IMG/VR virus record: IMGVR_UViG_2778261303_000002 | Strand: one strand, 5' to 3' | DNA from: a virus | Taxonomy: Duplodnaviria > Heunggongvirae > Uroviricota > Caudoviricetes | Length of the DNA: 7,743 nucleotides | Shown here: piece after piece, positions 1-7,743 of the stretch | Layout of the letters: every line of letters begins with the position of its first letter | Numbering within the stretch: position 1 is the stretch's first letter | The notes under the pieces: model-generated | What the model saw: the letters and a program-made list of their open reading frames with translations, nothing else | Told to the model about the DNA's origin: nothing | The model's database searches: none | Program-made: the position numbers and the translations under genes

Positions 1-2798
1 GCAGATTTGTCAAAAGTCTGCCCCTGCATCAGGGCATAACCAGACGGAACGGTATCTGATGGCCACGGGATTGGTGCGCCAACTGGGTAGCTTTCTGGTG
101 GAAGATTTTTCGAGGTATAAACTTCTGCCCAGCCTTCCTCAAAACCATAGCCATCTCTTGAGGAACGGTAGAACAGACCTCCATTTCTGTAATGCGCCTT
201 CATCTGCAGGGTCCGGCAACTTCCGACTCCGGTATAGAAGTTAACCAGAATATAGCTGTCGCCAGAGCGGGTGACATTGTAAGCGCCTGATTCGGCATTC
301 CATGGAACGCCCCCATCCGCATCGGCATACGTATCCGTTGCCCTTCTGGCAAAAGCAGCCACATGCGCGGCGGTTAAAGTAATATCTTTGGAACCATCAA
401 ACTCAACACCAGAAACCAGTCTTGGCGTTTGCAGCTTTGTTGCTGTTAATGCATTACCGTTCAGACTTGCGGACAGTTTGGTTCCAATAACCAGTTCGCC
501 GGTTGCGTTATCAATAGCAAACGGTCTTAATGTATTCCAGCCACCATAAACATCACCTTGATTGGTAAGCAGCAGGTAAGTTTTAGCGCCATCATTACGC
601 CATAATGCACCATACTCCCCACCTATCATTCGAATCTGATTACCACCACGCGCTACAATTTCGTCTGTGGCAAAAAGTTTTTTGCACGACAAGTTATCGT
701 TAACGATTAACGAATGAGACTCATAAAAACCACGCCCACTCTTAAAATCAAGGATAACGTCCGCCGCGATACATTCAGTCGCTGGATTTGTTGCCCCAAA
801 CTTATAGGTCGTATCATTAACAACGAGATCAGCACCAGGTGCGGATATTGACAGGCCATCTTCGATAAACGCAAAAACAGGGAAAGCAGCGCCATCAACA
901 TAGAACACAGAGCGCAAATCATCGCCCTTATTACTCATCATTATTGAGTGGATGGCTCGTTCATTGTTTTGATATTGCCAGAACATTCCATAAGCATAAC
1001 GCCCCCTGTCAGTCCAGCCACCAGGCATAACAAATCCGTTAAACTCGCAGTTATTCATCGGATCGCCTGCGGTTCGCGTTGCCGTGGTGATAATGACCCT
1101 TGATGCCAGTTCGCTTACTGAGCCAGCAGAACGCATAACAACAACAGGGTAATATTTTCCAGATGTTGCACCTGCAGGAGCGTTAACCCGCACATAACGC
1201 ATACCACGCTTATCAGCAAAGTCTGTTTTACTGACCGCGTTAATGTTGTTCAGGAAGCGTCCCTTATCGGGTATATCAGCGCCGTTCTGGTCTTTCTGCA
1301 GACGTTTCTCTGCATTGTCATAGGCTGATTTTACTGCCTTTGGCGTTGCCGCCAGCGTTTCAGACGTACTGTTGGTCGCACTGCTGAGCTGTACTATCCC
1401 CTTTTTCGTCGTGCTCGCATCCTCAAGCGCCACGGCGGATGCAATATCCTCTGCCCGTTTTGCCGCTGTCTCGGCGCGCGTTGCCGCGGATTCCGCCGTA
1501 CTTTTGCTCTGTGCTGCCGCCGTCGCACTGCCAGCTGCCTCTGTCGCCTTCGTGGATGCTGTCGTGGCGCTGCCCTTCGCTGCTGACGCCTGTCTGGTCG
1601 CCTCATCTTTTGAAGCAGACGCCGATGATGCCGATGACGCCGCCGAACTGGCTGACGATGCGGCAGCCGTTTTTGAGGATTCTGCGCTGGTTTCCGACGC
1701 TTTCGCGTTCGTTTCGGATGTCTTCGCTGCGGAAGCTGACCTCGCTGCTGCGCTGGCCTGTTCAGTGGCTTCGCCAGCCTTCGTTGTGGCTGTTGAAGCG
1801 GATGATGCGGCGCTTTCTGCCGATTTTCCGGCGGCGGTGGCACTGGCTGAGGCCTGCCCGGCACTTGTTGACGCGGCGCTGGCAGATGATGCAGCCGCTG
1901 TTTTTGAGCCTGCCGCAGCTGAGGCGCTCTGTCCCGCTGCCGTCTCAGAAGACCTGGCGTTCGTCTCGGACGTTTTTGCCGCCTTCGCGGAATTTCCTGC
2001 CGCCGTTGCCGAGGAAGCTGCACTACTGGCGCTTGATGATGCGTTCGTTTCTGATGATTTTGCCGCTTCTTTTGAGGCCGCCGCATCCCGGGCCGAGGTC
2101 GCAGCTTCTGATGCCTTCGTGGTCGCGGTGGATGCAGATGTGGCTGCTGATTGTTGTGACGCTGAAGCATTCGTTTCTGACGTTTTCGCCGCACCGGCAC
2201 TGGTGGCCGCCGCGCTTTTTGAGGACTCTGCAGCGGCAGCACTTTTTGATGCTTCAGTGGCCTTTGTTGATGCCGTTCCTGCGCTGGAAGACGCTGACTG
2301 AGCCGACGACGCGGCCTGTCCGGCTGACGTGCTGGCTGCGCGTGCTGAGTCCGCAGCATCAGCCGCATGGGTTGCCGCCTCACGGGCTGATGTGCTGGCA
2401 TCACTGGCTGACTTCTTCGCGGCTGCCGTGTTCTGTGCCACCGCGGACGCGTTACGCGCCACCTCTTCCACCATCAGTTCAAAACGGCGCAGTGCCTCCG
2501 GACGGGCATCATCCTCCGTCATGGCACCGAGAAAATCATTCAGCGTACCGGGTTGAGAATCTTCATACACGGTGATGGTCCCGGCATGTGACGGCGGGAA
2601 TCCTTCCACCAACAGAATAACGCTGTACTGACCGTACTCAACGTCCATGCTGTAACGCCCGGCTTCATCCGGATTTTCTGAGGCCAGCGTGTTCACCACC
2701 ACCGTGGTGCTGTTACGTTTTGCTTTCAGCTGGATTGTGCAGTTCTGTACCGGTTTTCCTGTGCCGTCTTTCAGTACACCTGAAATCTTTACTGCCAT
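1..2798 (-). CDS. stf: Side tail fibre protein (lambda Stf / StfR-like), N-terminal ~932 codons; the 3' end and stop lie beyond the left edge of the window
   Basis: Hand translation of the minus strand: ATG at 2798-2796 gives [14 protein letters not shown], the recognisable lambda-type Stf N-terminus. The same frame (codon top coordinate = 2 mod 3) gives [28 protein letters not shown] around 2300-2217, [20 protein letters not shown] at 959-900, and [23 protein letters not shown] at 68-1. SD-like GGGGTG lies 4-5 nt upstream of the ATG. Not in the ORF track because no stop occurs inside the window. Only four segments were translated by hand, so an internal frameshift cannot be fully excluded. 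Confidence 0.88.
1500..2470 (-). repeat. GC-rich, Ala/Ser/Thr(+Lys/Glu)-rich low-complexity coding repeat inside stf (fibre shaft); boundaries approximate
   Basis: The true stf frame here reads [27 protein letters not shown]-type repeats. The strong codon-level bias leaves several frames open on both strands (track ORFs 1372..2301 +, 1394..2404 -, 1439..2575 +, 2329..2556 +). Sampled GC is about 63% here versus about 47% in distal stf (421-480). Confidence 0.7.
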
Positions 2799-2809
2799 AT
2801 TCACCCCAC

Positions 2810-2836
2810 AAAAAAGCCCGCCTGAACCGGCGGGCT
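2810..2836 (-). terminator. Putative rho-independent terminator between lom and stf (minus strand)
   Basis: Inverted repeat gcccgcc (2816-2822) / ggcgggc (2829-2835) with 6-nt loop, extendable by an A-T pair at 2815/2836. On the minus strand it is followed directly by TTTTTT (complement of 2810-2815), which runs into the stf RBS. No comparable T-tract on the plus strand. Confidence 0.55.
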
Positions 2837-2862: not shown

Positions 2863-3462
2863 TCAGAATTTATAACCGACACCCACGATGAAACCGTCAG
2901 TGCGCCAGTCACCACTGCCGGAGCCTTCATAAGCAATATCAATGGCCACGGATTCGGTCGGGTTAAACTGCACGCCAGCTCCCCACGCCAGAGACGTGTT
3001 GCTGTGGCGACCGTCATCACTTCCGGTCAGCACGTCGTGCGTTTTCCCCTTGTTGTCAGTTACGCGGAGATAATCCCCGGAGAAAGTCGACACACGGCTG
3101 TAAGCCACACCCGCCATCGCATACGCGCTGAACCATTCATTCACGCGCACAGACGGCCCCGCCATCACGCTGAACCAGCGGTTACGCACGGAATCTTCAT
3201 GCCAGCGGGTATCGCTGTAATGCGTTTTTTGCTCATCTTCAGCGTTGGCATAACTGAATGACGTAATCAGCCCCAGCGTGTCCGTAAACTCATAACGGTA
3301 TTTCACGTTAATCCCGTTCAGATCATCGCTGCCGGGAGCGTTCGTACGGGCATGAAGATACCCTGCGCTCAGTGTGGCCTGCTGCTCAGACGCCCATGCA
3401 GGCGCACCGGATACGGCCAGACAGATGGCTGCGGACAAAATGGCTGCACAAACTTTACGCAT
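2863..3462 (-). CDS. lom: Lom outer membrane protein (Ail/Lom/PagC/OmpX-family beta-barrel), phage lysogenic-conversion 'moron'
   Basis: 199-aa [31 protein letters not shown]..., near-identical to lambda Lom as I recall it. Signal peptide with AWA/S cleavage motif, and a C-terminal ...GVGYKF ending in Phe, typical of OMP beta-barrels. SD GAGAGG upstream of the ATG. Position between J and stf matches lambda gene order. Confidence 0.95.
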
Positions 3463-3486
3463 AATTACCTCTCGCTTTTCTGCAAT

Positions 3487-3510
3487 AAAAAAGGCGCCAT
3501 TTCTGGCGCC
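3487..3510 (-). terminator. Putative rho-independent terminator between J stop and lom start (minus strand)
   Basis: Inverted repeat ggcgcca (3493-3499) / tggcgcc (3504-3510) with loop tttc. On the minus strand the hairpin begins 20 nt after the J stop and is followed by TTTTTT (complement of 3487-3492). Confidence 0.5.
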
Positions 3511-3529
3511 CGTATATGGGTTATAAAAT

Positions 3530-6500
3530 TCAGCTGATACTGATGCCTGCGGTGGCTTTCTTCATCACCACAACCAGCAAATCGCTGATACTTGCTGTGG
3601 GATACCAGTCATTTACCAGCCATGCTGACACCGAAAACTCCAGCGTCATGTGGCCGTGACCAGCTGGCATATCAATAACACCACTGTAAATCAGCGTATT
3701 ATCCAGCGCGGTACGGTTATAAATTTCAGCACCATTTTTCTTCACTATCAGGCGGCATGACGAATAAATATCGTTATTCTCCCGCTCATGTTTAGCGCCG
3801 CAGAATGCCACCGCTGGAATAACAATTTGCCTGTCAAAAGGCTGATCGTCATAAATCCTGACGGTAATGGTCCCTGATGACCACCGCTCCGGTGCCCGGG
3901 AGTCCCGCGGGAAAGCCTTACCCACTGTTTTGACAATATCGCCTTCAATCTGATTGGCTGACAGTTTCCCCTTAATCTGACAGTTCTCATTAATCGTGAC
4001 GTTGTTGAGCGTCCCTGAGTTCGCATTCACACTGCCACTGATATCCGCATTTTTAGCGGTCAGCTTTCCGTCTGATGTCAGGGAAAATACCGGAGGACTG
4101 CCACCGCTGGTAATGGTGGGGGCCGTCAGGCGCTTCAGGAACACGTCGTTCATGAATATCTGGTTGCCCTGCGCCACAAACATCGGCGTTTCATTCCCGT
4201 TTGCCGGGTCAATAAACGCGATACGGTTAGCGGCAACCAGAAACTGGCTCAGCTTGCCTTCCTCCGTGTCCTCCATGCTGAGGCCAATACCCGCGACATA
4301 ATGTTTGCCGTCTTTGGTCTGCTCAATTTTGACGCCCCACATGGCATTCCATTTATCGTTAGCGTCCTTCCACTCTTTCGAAAACTCATCCAGTCTGCTG
4401 GCGTTATCCTCCGTCAGATCGACTTTTTCCAGCAGCTCCTTGCCGAGATGGGATTCGGTTATCTGCCCTTTGAAAAAATCCAGGTAACCTTCCGCATCAT
4501 CGCTCGCCCGACCGACGGCCTCCACAAATGCCGATTTGCCTACGGTGTTCACACTGCGAACGTAAAAATAATAATCATGGCCCGGTTTGATATTGATACT
4601 GGCGGCTATCCAGTACAGCGCCGTACCAAGATAGCGCGCTGTGGTTTCAACCTGCCTGATATCGGTAATCCGCTTTTCCGAGAACCAGAACTCAAACTGT
4701 ACCGTCGGGTCATAAACGGCAAGATGCGGCGTGGCGGTTATCTGAAAATAGCCCGGCGTCAGCTCAATCCGCGACGGTGCTGCCGGTGCGGCAATCCGGA
4801 ACGATACCGACGCCGGATCGCCCTGCTGCCCCCACGCATTTACCGCCCGGACTGTCAGCCTGTAGTTCCCCAGCGCCAGTTGCCTGAAGCGGTATGTGGT
4901 TTCCGTCGTCCGGGCCGTGCTGACCAGCCGCTCACTGCCGTCGTCCGCTGTTACGGTCAGACGGAGCAGGAAGCTCACCCCCTTCACCACCTTCGGCGTG
5001 TCCCAGCGCGCCAGTACCTGATACTCCCCGCTGTCTGCGGTGACTTCGGCAGTCAGGTGCTGCACCGCTGGCGGCGTGACACCATTCACCGTGCCGCTCT
5101 GGTCGCCGTCAAAGTACGCCCCGTTATCCACGATGGACTCTTTTTCCGGTACATGCTGCACGGCGGTGATGGCATACGTGCCGTCGTCGTTCTCACGGAT
5201 ACTCACGCAGCGGAACAGGCGCTGGCGCAGCGTCGGCAGCTTCAGCCCCCACACGCTGTATTCAGCAACACCGTCAGGAACACGGCTCACTTTCACCTTC
5301 ACGCCGTCGGTGACGGACTGAACCTCCACGCTGATCGGATTGCCACTTCCGTCAACCAGGCTTATCAGCGTGGTACCGGAGGATGGCAGCGTGATTTCAC
5401 GGTCGAGTGTCAGCGTCCGGGTCTGGCTGTTCACCGCCAGCACGCGCCCGCCGGTGCTGATACCGGCATAGTCATCATCGCAGATTTCAATGACATCGCC
5501 CGGCACATGGCGAAGCCCTTCTGCGCCCACGCAGAAGTCCACGGTCTGCGTTTCCAGCAGTTCTGTTTTAATCAGCCACAGCCCGGCGCGGTGTGCCTGC
5601 CCCCGACTGGTACAGCCAAAGGCATCCATCTTCGTGACGTTACGACCGTAACGGGCAATGGCCTGCGTGTCCTCCACAAGCTCTGTTGCCGTCTCCCAGC
5701 CGTTGTTCGGGTCAATCCAGTTCACCTCAACGGCATTATGGCGGTCCTTCAGGGCGCTGAAGCTGTAGCGGAACGGCGCGCCATCATCCGGCATCACCAC
5801 ATTACTGCGGTTATAGGTCCACACCTTATCCGACGGCCGGTCCTGCACGAACGTCAGCGTCTGCCCGTTCCATACCGGCATACAGCGCATCGCCGAGCAG
5901 AAATCACTGAGCACATCCCACGCCTTACGTTGTGTGGTCAGGTAAGCGTTACAGGTGATGCGCGGCTCCGTACCGCCAAAGCCGTCCGGCACCGACTGGT
6001 CGCAGTACTGGCCGATGACATACAGCGCCCATTTATCCACATCTGCCGCACCAAGACGTTTCCCCATGCCGTAGCGCGGGTGGGTCAGCATATCCCACAG
6101 ACACCAGGCCATGTTGTTGCTGTATGCCGGTTTTAACGTTCCGTCCCAGATACCGCTGTATTGTCGCGTCTGCGGGTTATAGTTCGACGGCACCTGCAGA
6201 ATGCGCCCGCGAAGATGATAATTACGGCTCACCTGCTGGCTGCCGAACTGCTCCGAATCCACCTGCACGCCGACCAGTGCCGTGTTCGGGTAGCACTGTT
6301 TCACATCGATGATTTCGGTGCATGACGACCAGAGCGTTTTGTTCTGCAGCTGGTCTGTGGTGCTGTCCGGCGTCATCCTGCGCATCCGGATATTAAACGG
6401 GCGCGGCGGCAGGTTATCCACCACCACCGAGGCCAGATACTGCGAGGTGGTTTTGCCCTTAATGGTGATGTCTTTTTCCGTCACCCAGCCACCGTTACGC

Positions 6501-6925
6501 TGTATCTGAACCAGCAGGCGGACTTCCGATGGATTCCTGTCCCCCTTTGAGGTGGTTTCCACCAGTGCCTGCACACCGAAGGTAAAGCGCAGACGGTCGA
6601 TGTTTGCCGACGTGATGGTGCGGGTGATCGGCGTGTCATATTTCACTTCCGTACCCAGCACAGTCTCGGAGCCGGAGGATTCAAAACCTTCCGGCGGTGT
6701 CTGCTCCTGCTCACCTGCCCGGAAAACCACCGTGACACCGGAGATATTGGTATTCCCCTCACTGTCCAGCACTGGCGTACTGTTCAGCAGCACACTTTTT
6801 AATCCGTCCACCGGACCTTCAACCGGCCCTTCGCTGATGGCGTCTATCACGCTCAGCATCTGGGATGATTTCAGGTTGTCCTTCGCTTCGCGCGGGGTAT
6901 GCCCCTTACTGCTGCCTTTACCCAT
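3530..6925 (-). CDS. J: Host specificity protein J (tail tip / central tail fibre, receptor recognition)
   Basis: 1131-aa ORF beginning [20 protein letters not shown]..., matching lambda J (1132 aa) along most of its length as I recall it. Follows I after a 60-nt gap. The C-terminal ~140 aa appear to differ from lambda J (see findings). Confidence 0.97.
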
Positions 6926-6985: not shown

Positions 6986-7657
6986 TCAACGACCAATCAC
7001 CACAACCTGGCCACCGTCCCCCTCGTCTGCCGTGCTGATCTCCTGAGAAGCCACCCGCGACCCCACGCGCATTTCACCGTACAGAACAGGCAGAACATTG
7101 CCCTGGGCAACCATGTTATCCAGTGAGGAGAAATAGGTGTTCTGCTTACCGTTATCCGTTGTCTGTATACGGGGAGTTCTGGCTTTCGGTGCCAGCATCT
7201 GCGCCACACCACCGAGCACCATACTGGCACCGAGAGAAAACAGGATGCCGGTCATACCACCGGCCCCAATGGCTGCCCCCCATGCTGCAAGGGTGGCTCC
7301 GGCGGTAAAGAATGATCCGGCAATGGCGGCAGCTCCCAGGACAATCTGGAATACGCCCCCTGACTTGGCTCCGGCGACTCTGGGAACAATATGAATCACA
7401 GCGCCGTCAGGCAGAGTCTCATGTAACTGCGCCGTTAACCCGGACGTGCTGACGTCCCGCCCGGCAATCCGTACCTGATACCAGCCGTCGCTCAGTTTCT
7501 GACGAAACGCCGGGAGCTGTGTGGCCAGCGCCCGGATGGCTTCAGCCCCCGTTTTCACACGAAGGTCGATGCGGCGGCCAAATCGTTGTAAATCCCCGTA
7601 AAGGCAGATGCGCGCCATGCCCGGTGACGCCAGAGGGAGTGTGTGCGTCGCTGCCAT
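6986..7657 (-). CDS. I: Tail tip assembly protein I
   Basis: 223-aa ORF MAATHTLPLASPGMARICLYGDLQRFGRRIDLRVKTG..., the same length and, to my recollection, essentially the same sequence as lambda gpI. Its start lies inside the 3' end of K in a different frame, as in lambda. Confidence 0.95.
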   Translation of the reverse strand: MAATHTLPLASPGMARICLYGDLQRFGRRIDLRVKTGAEAIRALATQLPAFRQKLSDGWYQVRIAGRDVSTSGLTAQLHETLPDGAVIHIVPRVAGAKSGGVFQIVLGAAAIAGSFFTAGATLAAWGAAIGAGGMTGILFSLGASMVLGGVAQMLAPKARTPRIQTTDNGKQNTYFSSLDNMVAQGNVLPVLYGEMRVGSRVASQEISTADEGDGGQVVVIGR

Positions 7658-7743
7658 TTGTCGGTGTACCTCTCTCGTTTGCTCAGTTGTTCAGGAATAT
7701 GGTGCAGCAGCTCGCCGTCACCACAGTAAATGGCGGCATGATT
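7555..7743 (-). CDS. K: Tail assembly protein K, C-terminal 62 codons only; 5' end lies beyond the right edge of the window
   Basis: Minus-strand translation from the window edge gives NHAAIYCGDGELLHHIPEQLSKRERYTDKWQRRTHSLWRHRAWRASAFTGIYNDLAAASTFV then stop (TGA, complement of 7555-7557), matching the lambda gpK C-terminus as I recall it. Overlaps I by 103 nt out of frame. Confidence 0.9.
   Translation of the reverse strand, partial: NHAAIYCGDGELLHHIPEQLSKRERYTDKWQRRTHSLWRHRAWRASAFTGIYNDLAAASTFV

Follow-up and report, generated by a model that had tools for sequence, protein, structure and literature searches.

We analysed a 7,743-nucleotide stretch of viral DNA (IMG/VR virus record IMGVR_UViG_2778261303_000002, Caudoviricetes; hereafter the window) and found that its gene J, which encodes the tail-tip / central tail fibre protein, is a mosaic. 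A J body of the lambda/2H10 type is joined to a receptor-binding domain (RBD) of a class that we call class A, and the receptor of this RBD is most likely OmpC, in EDL933-like alleles and not that of K-12, rather than LamB. We put the probability of this reading as a whole at roughly 80%. The mosaic structure of J and its breakpoints come from a max-chi-square breakpoint scan and from alignments of the window with lambda, with the circular element pAH01-1, with phage PhiR55_1 and with 2H10, which is the closest phage record to the whole window (96.1% identity, 96% of the window covered). The gpJ 1A2 named below is a variant from Eligo Bioscience in which the J C-terminus of a natural E. coli prophage is grafted onto lambda J at residue 964 (Brodel et al., Nature 2024, PMC11338833). 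J is divided as follows.

3530-6925, minus strand: gene J, tail-tip / central tail fibre protein, 1131 amino acids, an intact open reading frame (frame and translation, six Pfam J domains, DNA identity to lambda).
4006-6925, minus strand: lambda-like J body, codons 1-973, with the hub domains, FNIII/Ig domains, helical shaft and most of the straight fibre (DNA mismatch against lambda and 2H10, amino-acid identity).
3926-4005, minus strand: end of the straight fibre, codons 974-1000, the crossover zone (sliding identity, breakpoints).
3592-3925, minus strand: exchanged core of the RBD, codons 1001-1112, class A (breakpoints, PF12421, identity to PhiR55_1 and gpJ 1A2).
3533-3591, minus strand: last 19 codons of J, common to RBD classes A and B (homology to 2H10 regained).

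A first-pass annotation of the window had described most of J as matching lambda J and its C-terminal end as unlike that of lambda though related, and both descriptions hold. J is ~96% identical to lambda J over codons 1-973, with the same order of domains and a length within one residue. In steps of 50 residues, identity to lambda J is 90-100% up to residue 950, 78% for residues 951-1000 and 34-44% beyond. The peptide quoted in support of a divergent end is present in the J translation, and tblastn gave 43.9% identity to lambda over the last 154 residues of J. The final 150 residues are therefore far from the identity of over 95% to lambda J that was named as evidence against a swap, and the end of J does not show the high identity to lambda J residues ~980-1132 by which the LamB-binding RBD of lambda would be recognized. 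At the DNA level, homology to lambda (95.8%) spans 7743-3969, stops, and returns only at ~2990, near the end of lom. Against lambda the breakpoint is at 4005 (codon 974), with a mismatch of 4.2% on the side of the J body and 45% beyond it (chi2 764). The divergence of the J end from lambda is real and far beyond chance.

The extent of the divergent segment needed correction. The 3' end of J does diverge, but the limits given in the first-pass annotation, 3530-3990, do not describe it. Compared with lambda, the block runs from ~4005 through the end of J, the intergenic region and most of lom to ~2990; compared with the nearest relative, it comprises only 3592-3925. The breakpoints against 2H10 are 3926 and 3592, with mismatch changing from 4.4% to 46% and back to 6.3%. 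Identity to 2H10 is 96-100% down to 3926, 40-68% over 3925-~3592, and at least 90% again from 3591 on, through the J stop codon, the terminator and most of lom. The patch itself (3592-3925) shows 86-100% DNA identity to PhiR55_1. Codons 974-1000, which have diverged from lambda, are 96-100% identical to 2H10, a backbone of the A8 type, and only 76-90% identical to the class-A PhiR55_1. Thus the unit exchanged relative to the nearest relative measures only ~335 bp and comprises codons 1001-1112.

The position of this unit coincides with a known domain. Six Pfam families are found in J in the lambda order, all above their cut-offs with E values of 1e-33 to 3e-42: FNIII-A, the Phage-tail_3 hub, two Ig-like families, the tail-tip fibre and the C-terminal RBD. 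The last of these, PF12421 (Ig_GpJ_C, C-terminal receptor binding domain), covers J residues 1001-1131 and all 135 positions of the profile (E 6e-37; score 127 bits, cut-off 26), so that the exchanged unit is the PF12421 domain minus its conserved last strand. In both PhiR55_1 and the 46.9-kb circular element pAH01-1 the class-A sequence starts ~175 nt further upstream, and 2H10 has the backbone of the window, yet carries an RBD identical to that of A8. These differences in junction and partner indicate repeated exchange. In the window, the lambda/2H10-type body was most likely joined to the class-A RBD by homologous recombination within the conserved straight-fibre end. The central claim of the first-pass annotation, that the receptor-binding end of J is an exchanged module and predicts a different receptor, is thus borne out by the sharp breakpoints, by their coincidence with PF12421, by the presence of the patch in different J backbones and by ~92% identity to a variant that uses OmpC.

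A 19-nt imperfect direct repeat (2.3 copies, with AACTGTCAG twice) lies at 3958-4000, between the break against lambda at 4005 and that against 2H10 at 3926, and may be there by chance. The tandem repeat search returned nothing else of relevance.

Base composition was also considered as a sign of the swap, and was rejected. The first-pass annotation had reported a low guanine-plus-cytosine (GC) content for the end of J, and its values for 60-nt blocks were reproduced exactly (0.35-0.53 over 3541-3840 versus 0.65 at 5041-5100); the compositional break that it placed at the module boundary was not. GC in J steps from ~0.60 to ~0.51 at codon ~740 (window ~4705), and GC at third codon positions (GC3) falls there from 0.73 to 0.62. 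This step lies ~780 nt upstream of the breakpoint, in sequence with 96% identity to lambda, and it recurs in the J genes of lambda and 2H10; it therefore says nothing on the exchange. The GC of the exchanged patch is 0.503, compared with 0.509 in the 260 conserved codons directly upstream, and only GC3 is somewhat lower (0.518 versus 0.619). The drop at codon ~740 could mark an ancient mosaic junction, or else a shift in amino-acid composition from hub to fibre.

Among the lambda-type J proteins of the phage collection, four classes can be told apart by the C-terminal 155-170 residues; they are clearly homologous (59 of 180 alignment columns invariant). Class A comprises the window, PhiR55_1 (94%), many Stx1a/Stx2a O157 prophages, VT1-Sakai, PPompW, JLK-2012 and 2G7b (90-94%). 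Class B, with 62-71% identity to the window RBD, holds A8, 2H10, phage 21 and phi330. The lambda class is 44-48% identical to the window RBD and the 434 / mEp460 class 41-51%. Membership of class A calls for at least 90% amino-acid identity over the RBD and for the loop lengths of the class, and the window RBD has both: it aligns to PhiR55_1 at 94% without gaps, to 54 phage records at 90-94%, and to gpJ 1A2 at ~92%, an approximate figure like the others for this protein, which we rebuilt from machine-read supplement DNA with dropped bases (PMC11338833). Of 5426 complete E. coli genomes, 3565 contain this RBD class at an identity of at least 80%. The class-A RBD is the commonest in E. coli, and one of its members has a tested receptor.

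By sequence, the nearest solved structures are A8 gpJ713 (9wca/9wcb, E 3e-69) and then lambda J (8xcj, E 2e-45; 8iyk). The Ig-like beta-sandwich with four bottom loops that is predicted for the window RBD follows from its 64-70% identity to a solved chain. A single-sequence AlphaFold2 model of the RBD is all-beta over residues 54-157, at low confidence (predicted local distance difference test, pLDDT, 54.5); a Foldseek search with it gave 9wca, 9wcb, 8xck and 8xcj as best matches, with a template modelling (TM) score of ~0.5, and mostly repeats the sequence result.

Several relatives of the window RBD have been tied to OmpC. A8, like 1A2, is the C-terminal end of a natural prophage J fused to lambda J at residue 964, and with either variant DNA delivery to a lamB/ompC double mutant depends on the supply of OmpC (PMC11338833). 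A8 accepts OmpC of K-12 and of EDL933, while 1A2 accepts only EDL933 OmpC and not that of MG1655 (K-12), and the two jointly cover 21 of the 23 OmpC variants tested (PMC11338833). PDB entry 9wcb is the open state of A8 gpJ with OmpC of EDL933. Infection by the Stx phage phi330 is lost on ompC knockout and restored by complementation (PMC12502783), and our alignment places the phi330 RBD in class B. The receptor of 434 is also OmpC (PMC11101478). For the class-A PhiR phages the host is given as E. coli C or ECOR13, with K-12 in none of those listed, which fits the failure of 1A2 on K-12 OmpC. Based on these likenesses in sequence, the receptor of the window J is most likely OmpC, in alleles such as that of O157 EDL933 rather than that of K-12, and not LamB; the first-pass annotation was probably right to predict a different receptor. 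A literature search on the receptors of the PhiR phages returned only a defence-system preprint without J receptor data, one on J, OmpC and Stx prophages found nothing, and a receptor-prediction preprint treats the GpJ of Drexlerviridae and does not cover class A.

The alignment to phi330 also suggests which parts of the window RBD would touch the porin. The contact hairpins of phi330 with OmpC (TSTY, ENFNSNNQQS and ANNWTP) are themselves AlphaFold3 predictions (PMC12502783), and their counterparts in the window are the following.

3881-3904, minus strand: predicted bottom loop 1 of the RBD, J residues 1008-1015, DSRAPERW; aligns to phi330 T918-Y921, with a 4-residue insertion relative to class B (by homology; PMC12502783, PMC11101478).
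3770-3790, minus strand: predicted porin-barrel-entering hairpin, J residues 1046-1052, HERENND; aligns to phi330 E953-S962 and is 5 residues shorter than in class B.
3599-3616, minus strand: predicted rim-contact hairpin, J residues 1104-1109, VNDWYP; aligns to phi330 A1015-P1020.

The indels of 4 and 5 codons that separate classes A and B thus sit in predicted contact loops. Within the barrel-entering hairpin the window differs from PhiR55_1 by N1050H and N1051T, and from 1A2 by R1048K, N1050H and N1051T. Together with C1042S and D1106N, these substitutions relative to 1A2/PhiR55_1 lie in or near the predicted contact loops.

These differences bear on the most serious alternative, in which the exchanged RBD binds another receptor (for example OmpF, LamB or another outer-membrane protein) or only those OmpC alleles that 1A2 does not use. 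Several points weigh against our main reading, and some of them favour this alternative. The window RBD differs from 1A2 at ~14 of 170 positions, a count that is approximate because the 1A2 sequence was read by machine from a PDF and lacks some bases, and it differs from PhiR55_1 at 10; these 10-14 substitutions are clustered near the predicted barrel-entering hairpin, with C1042, R1048, N1050 and N1051 in or next to it, so that allele preference could differ. Even 1A2 and A8 differ in the OmpC alleles that they accept (PMC11338833). Related RBD classes need not share a receptor, as the lambda class uses LamB at 44-48% identity, and RBDs are known to change specificity easily: lambda J gains the use of OmpF by a few point mutations (PMC11101478). 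The single-sequence AlphaFold model is poor and adds little beyond the sequence matches. In addition, the prophage is known here from a 7.7-kb contig only and may be incomplete or inactive. We nevertheless regard another receptor as improbable, since the window RBD is 92-94% identical to class-A RBDs, three RBD classes (the 434, A8/phi330 and 1A2 types) are tied to OmpC (PMC11338833, PMC11101478, PMC12502783), and identity to the LamB-binding class is only 44%. A narrower version deserves somewhat more weight, though we still think it unlikely: the substitutions at C1042, R1048, N1050 and N1051 may shift the usable set of OmpC alleles away from that of 1A2 or, less likely, select a different porin. 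If the allele set is shifted, the window would hold a natural fine-tuning variant, useful to map the loop residues that read OmpC alleles.

With OmpC as the likely receptor, a triggering mechanism can be proposed by analogy. The RBD of lambda has an Ig-like fold and inserts its four bottom loops into the extracellular lumen of trimeric LamB. On binding, the three RBDs move apart, and as a result the beta-prism fibre twists, the helical shaft flips over, the FNIII strings are freed and the tail tip opens (PMC11101478). By comparison with lambda J-LamB (8xcj) and A8 gpJ-OmpC (9wcb), the J trimer of the window would dock on a porin trimer, with the bottom loops of its C-terminal Ig-like domain entering the trimeric porin. 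Docking would spread the three RBDs, and this movement would travel up the fibre and open the tail tip. As the signal-transmitting body is 96% identical to that of lambda, the same chain of events may be expected, with a different porin as the trigger.

Two further alternatives concern the mosaic itself. The first is an assembly chimera, in which a repeat common to two lambdoid prophages would have led the assembler to connect the J body of one with the RBD of the other. The window equals the complete contig NOMM01000067.1 (7743 bp) of the draft assembly GCA_002518575.1, which probably holds several lambdoid prophages; matching places number 2-3 per E. coli genome in the median and reach 16, and the flank at 3926-4100 is nearly identical among several phages. 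Furthermore, among the records listed none matches the whole 7.7-kb window above 96.6%, which leaves the full set of J body, RBD, lom and stf unconfirmed elsewhere. However, positions 3590-3960, which contain the patch and its left junction, are found at 99.7% in 96 or more complete E. coli records, ATCC 8739 and SCU-104 among them; window 2863-4030 is found at 99.3% in SCU-104 and UTAK-1; and in pAH01-1 and three chromosomes a single unbroken alignment covers the whole window at 95-96.5%. With complete genomes matching across the junction, an assembly chimera is therefore very unlikely. Divergence of the J end in place, by fast point mutation under diversifying selection and with no module exchange, is likewise very unlikely, for although RBD loops are known targets of selection, point mutations can take lambda J to OmpF (PMC11101478) and the RBD classes are homologous, the boundaries are sharp on both sides, the classes are separated by indels of 4 and 5 codons, the patch is 86-100% identical in J genes with other flanks (PhiR55_1, pAH01-1), and 2H10, the nearest relative of the backbone, has another RBD class.

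The mosaic J gene stands in an otherwise lambda-like arrangement. The window is collinear with lambda 14687-21324 in the DNA alignment, and open reading frames, translations and gene calls place all genes on the minus strand in the order K - I - J - lom - stf, as in lambda. The features outside J are these.

7555-7743, minus strand: 3' end of gene K, cut at the contig end (61 of 62 codons identical to the lambda K C-terminus).
6986-7657, minus strand: gene I, tail tip assembly protein, 223 amino acids (open reading frame; Pfam Lambda_tail_I).
3492-3511, minus strand: intrinsic-terminator-like hairpin and T-run between J and lom (terminator scan: stem of 8 bp, 6 of them GC, then TTTTTATT).
2863-3462, minus strand: lom, Ail/Lom outer-membrane beta-barrel, 199 amino acids (Pfam PF06316, E 4e-127).
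2815-2836, minus strand: intrinsic-terminator-like hairpin 3' of lom (terminator scan; conserved in lambda, 2H10 and PhiR55_1).
1-2798, minus strand: stf (side tail fibre), a 5' part of 932 codons, truncated at the contig end (Pfam phage_tail_N, Gp34_trimer and Collar).

At a place matching the hairpin between J and lom, mEp460 and phage 21 carry an annotated terminator. The two ends of the window (1 and 7743) are contig ends within stf and K, which is typical of repeat-collapsed prophage regions in short-read assemblies.

The Lom protein is 47% identical to that of lambda, 91% to that of 2H10, 96% to that of pAH01-1 and 85% to that of PhiR55_1. The lom gene is a different allele from that of lambda and is therefore part of the block that differs from lambda. 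A 50-nt patch in lom (3220-3269, Lom residues ~65-81) is unlike 2H10, PhiR55_1 and lambda and is common to pAH01-1; it may represent a variable surface loop exchanged on its own.

The element pAH01-1 (NZ_CP055252.1) is the best complete-genome match to the whole window. It is recorded as a 46.9-kb circular 'plasmid' with a ParB partition gene, and is possibly a phage-plasmid. A gene for a macro-domain protein lies between its stf and its tail fibre assembly gene (features at 11341-12231 and 12848-13743). In lambda h434 imm21 (OM418627), positions 6815-8401, downstream of stf/tfa, carry genes annotated as NleB-/NleC-like type III effectors; this observation comes from annotation only and is unrelated to the window.

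Within stf, residues ~115-470 (window ~1390-2450, minus strand) are an Ala/Ser/Thr-rich stretch of low complexity with a GC of 0.60-0.66 and an AT skew of -0.4 to -0.6 on the plus strand. Lambda stf has no counterpart to window 1585-1891, so that the low-complexity stretch of the window is ~100 residues longer than that of lambda. Long antisense open reading frames lie opposite J (611 codons, 4301-6136, plus strand) and opposite stf (378 codons, 1439-2575, plus strand), and are probably by-products of GC-rich codon usage. Lambda stf has an annotated antisense orf206b.

The standard route by which lambdoid phages change their host range is to exchange the J C-terminus; the h434 and h80 hybrids of lambda are classical cases, and engineered gpJ chimeras make use of the same principle. 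The window is one more natural exchange of the J end, with its junctions precisely mapped. This kind of module exchange is already known, and our results neither reveal a new mechanism nor address an open question. They illustrate that an exchange can involve as little as ~335 bp and that the same module is joined at different points of the conserved fibre end. For host-range prediction, OmpC-type and not LamB-type is the annotation that we recommend for the prophage.

Among known systems, gpJ 1A2 provides the closest comparison with a tested receptor. Like the window J it has a class-A RBD, of equal length and with equal loop indels, at ~92% amino-acid identity over the last 170 residues, on a lambda-type J body. 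It differs by the ~14 substitutions, including C1042S, R1048K, N1050H, N1051T and D1106N, and by its junction, which lies at residue 964, while that of the window lies at codon ~1000. The J proteins of PhiR55_1 (PV340571) and of the O157 prophages share the class-A RBD at 90-94% amino-acid identity, and the lom downstream of J in PhiR55_1 is similar (85%). However, the J of PhiR55_1 has 1159 amino acids, the region upstream of its RBD is only 76-90% identical at the DNA level, and its backbone is different.

A8 gpJ (9wca closed, 9wcb open) has the same domain and architecture, and is identical to the window as far as residue ~1001 and again across the final ~19 residues. A8 shares its RBD sequence with 2H10, whose J body is ~96% identical to that of the window, and this RBD is close to those of phage 21 and phi330. 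In contrast, DNA identity between A8 and the window is 40-68% over 3592-3925 and amino-acid identity is 70% over 170 residues; relative to A8, loop 1 of the window is longer by 4 residues and the barrel-entering hairpin shorter by 5. More distant are the J proteins of 434 (lambda h434 hybrid, OM418627) and of mEp460 / cdtI, which carry a homologous RBD, but with 41-51% identity and several loop indels. Lambda J (P03749; PDB 8xcj with LamB, 8xck, 8iyk) is unlike the window J in its C-terminal end (44% identity over the last ~155 residues), in its receptor, LamB, and in the lom allele that accompanies it.

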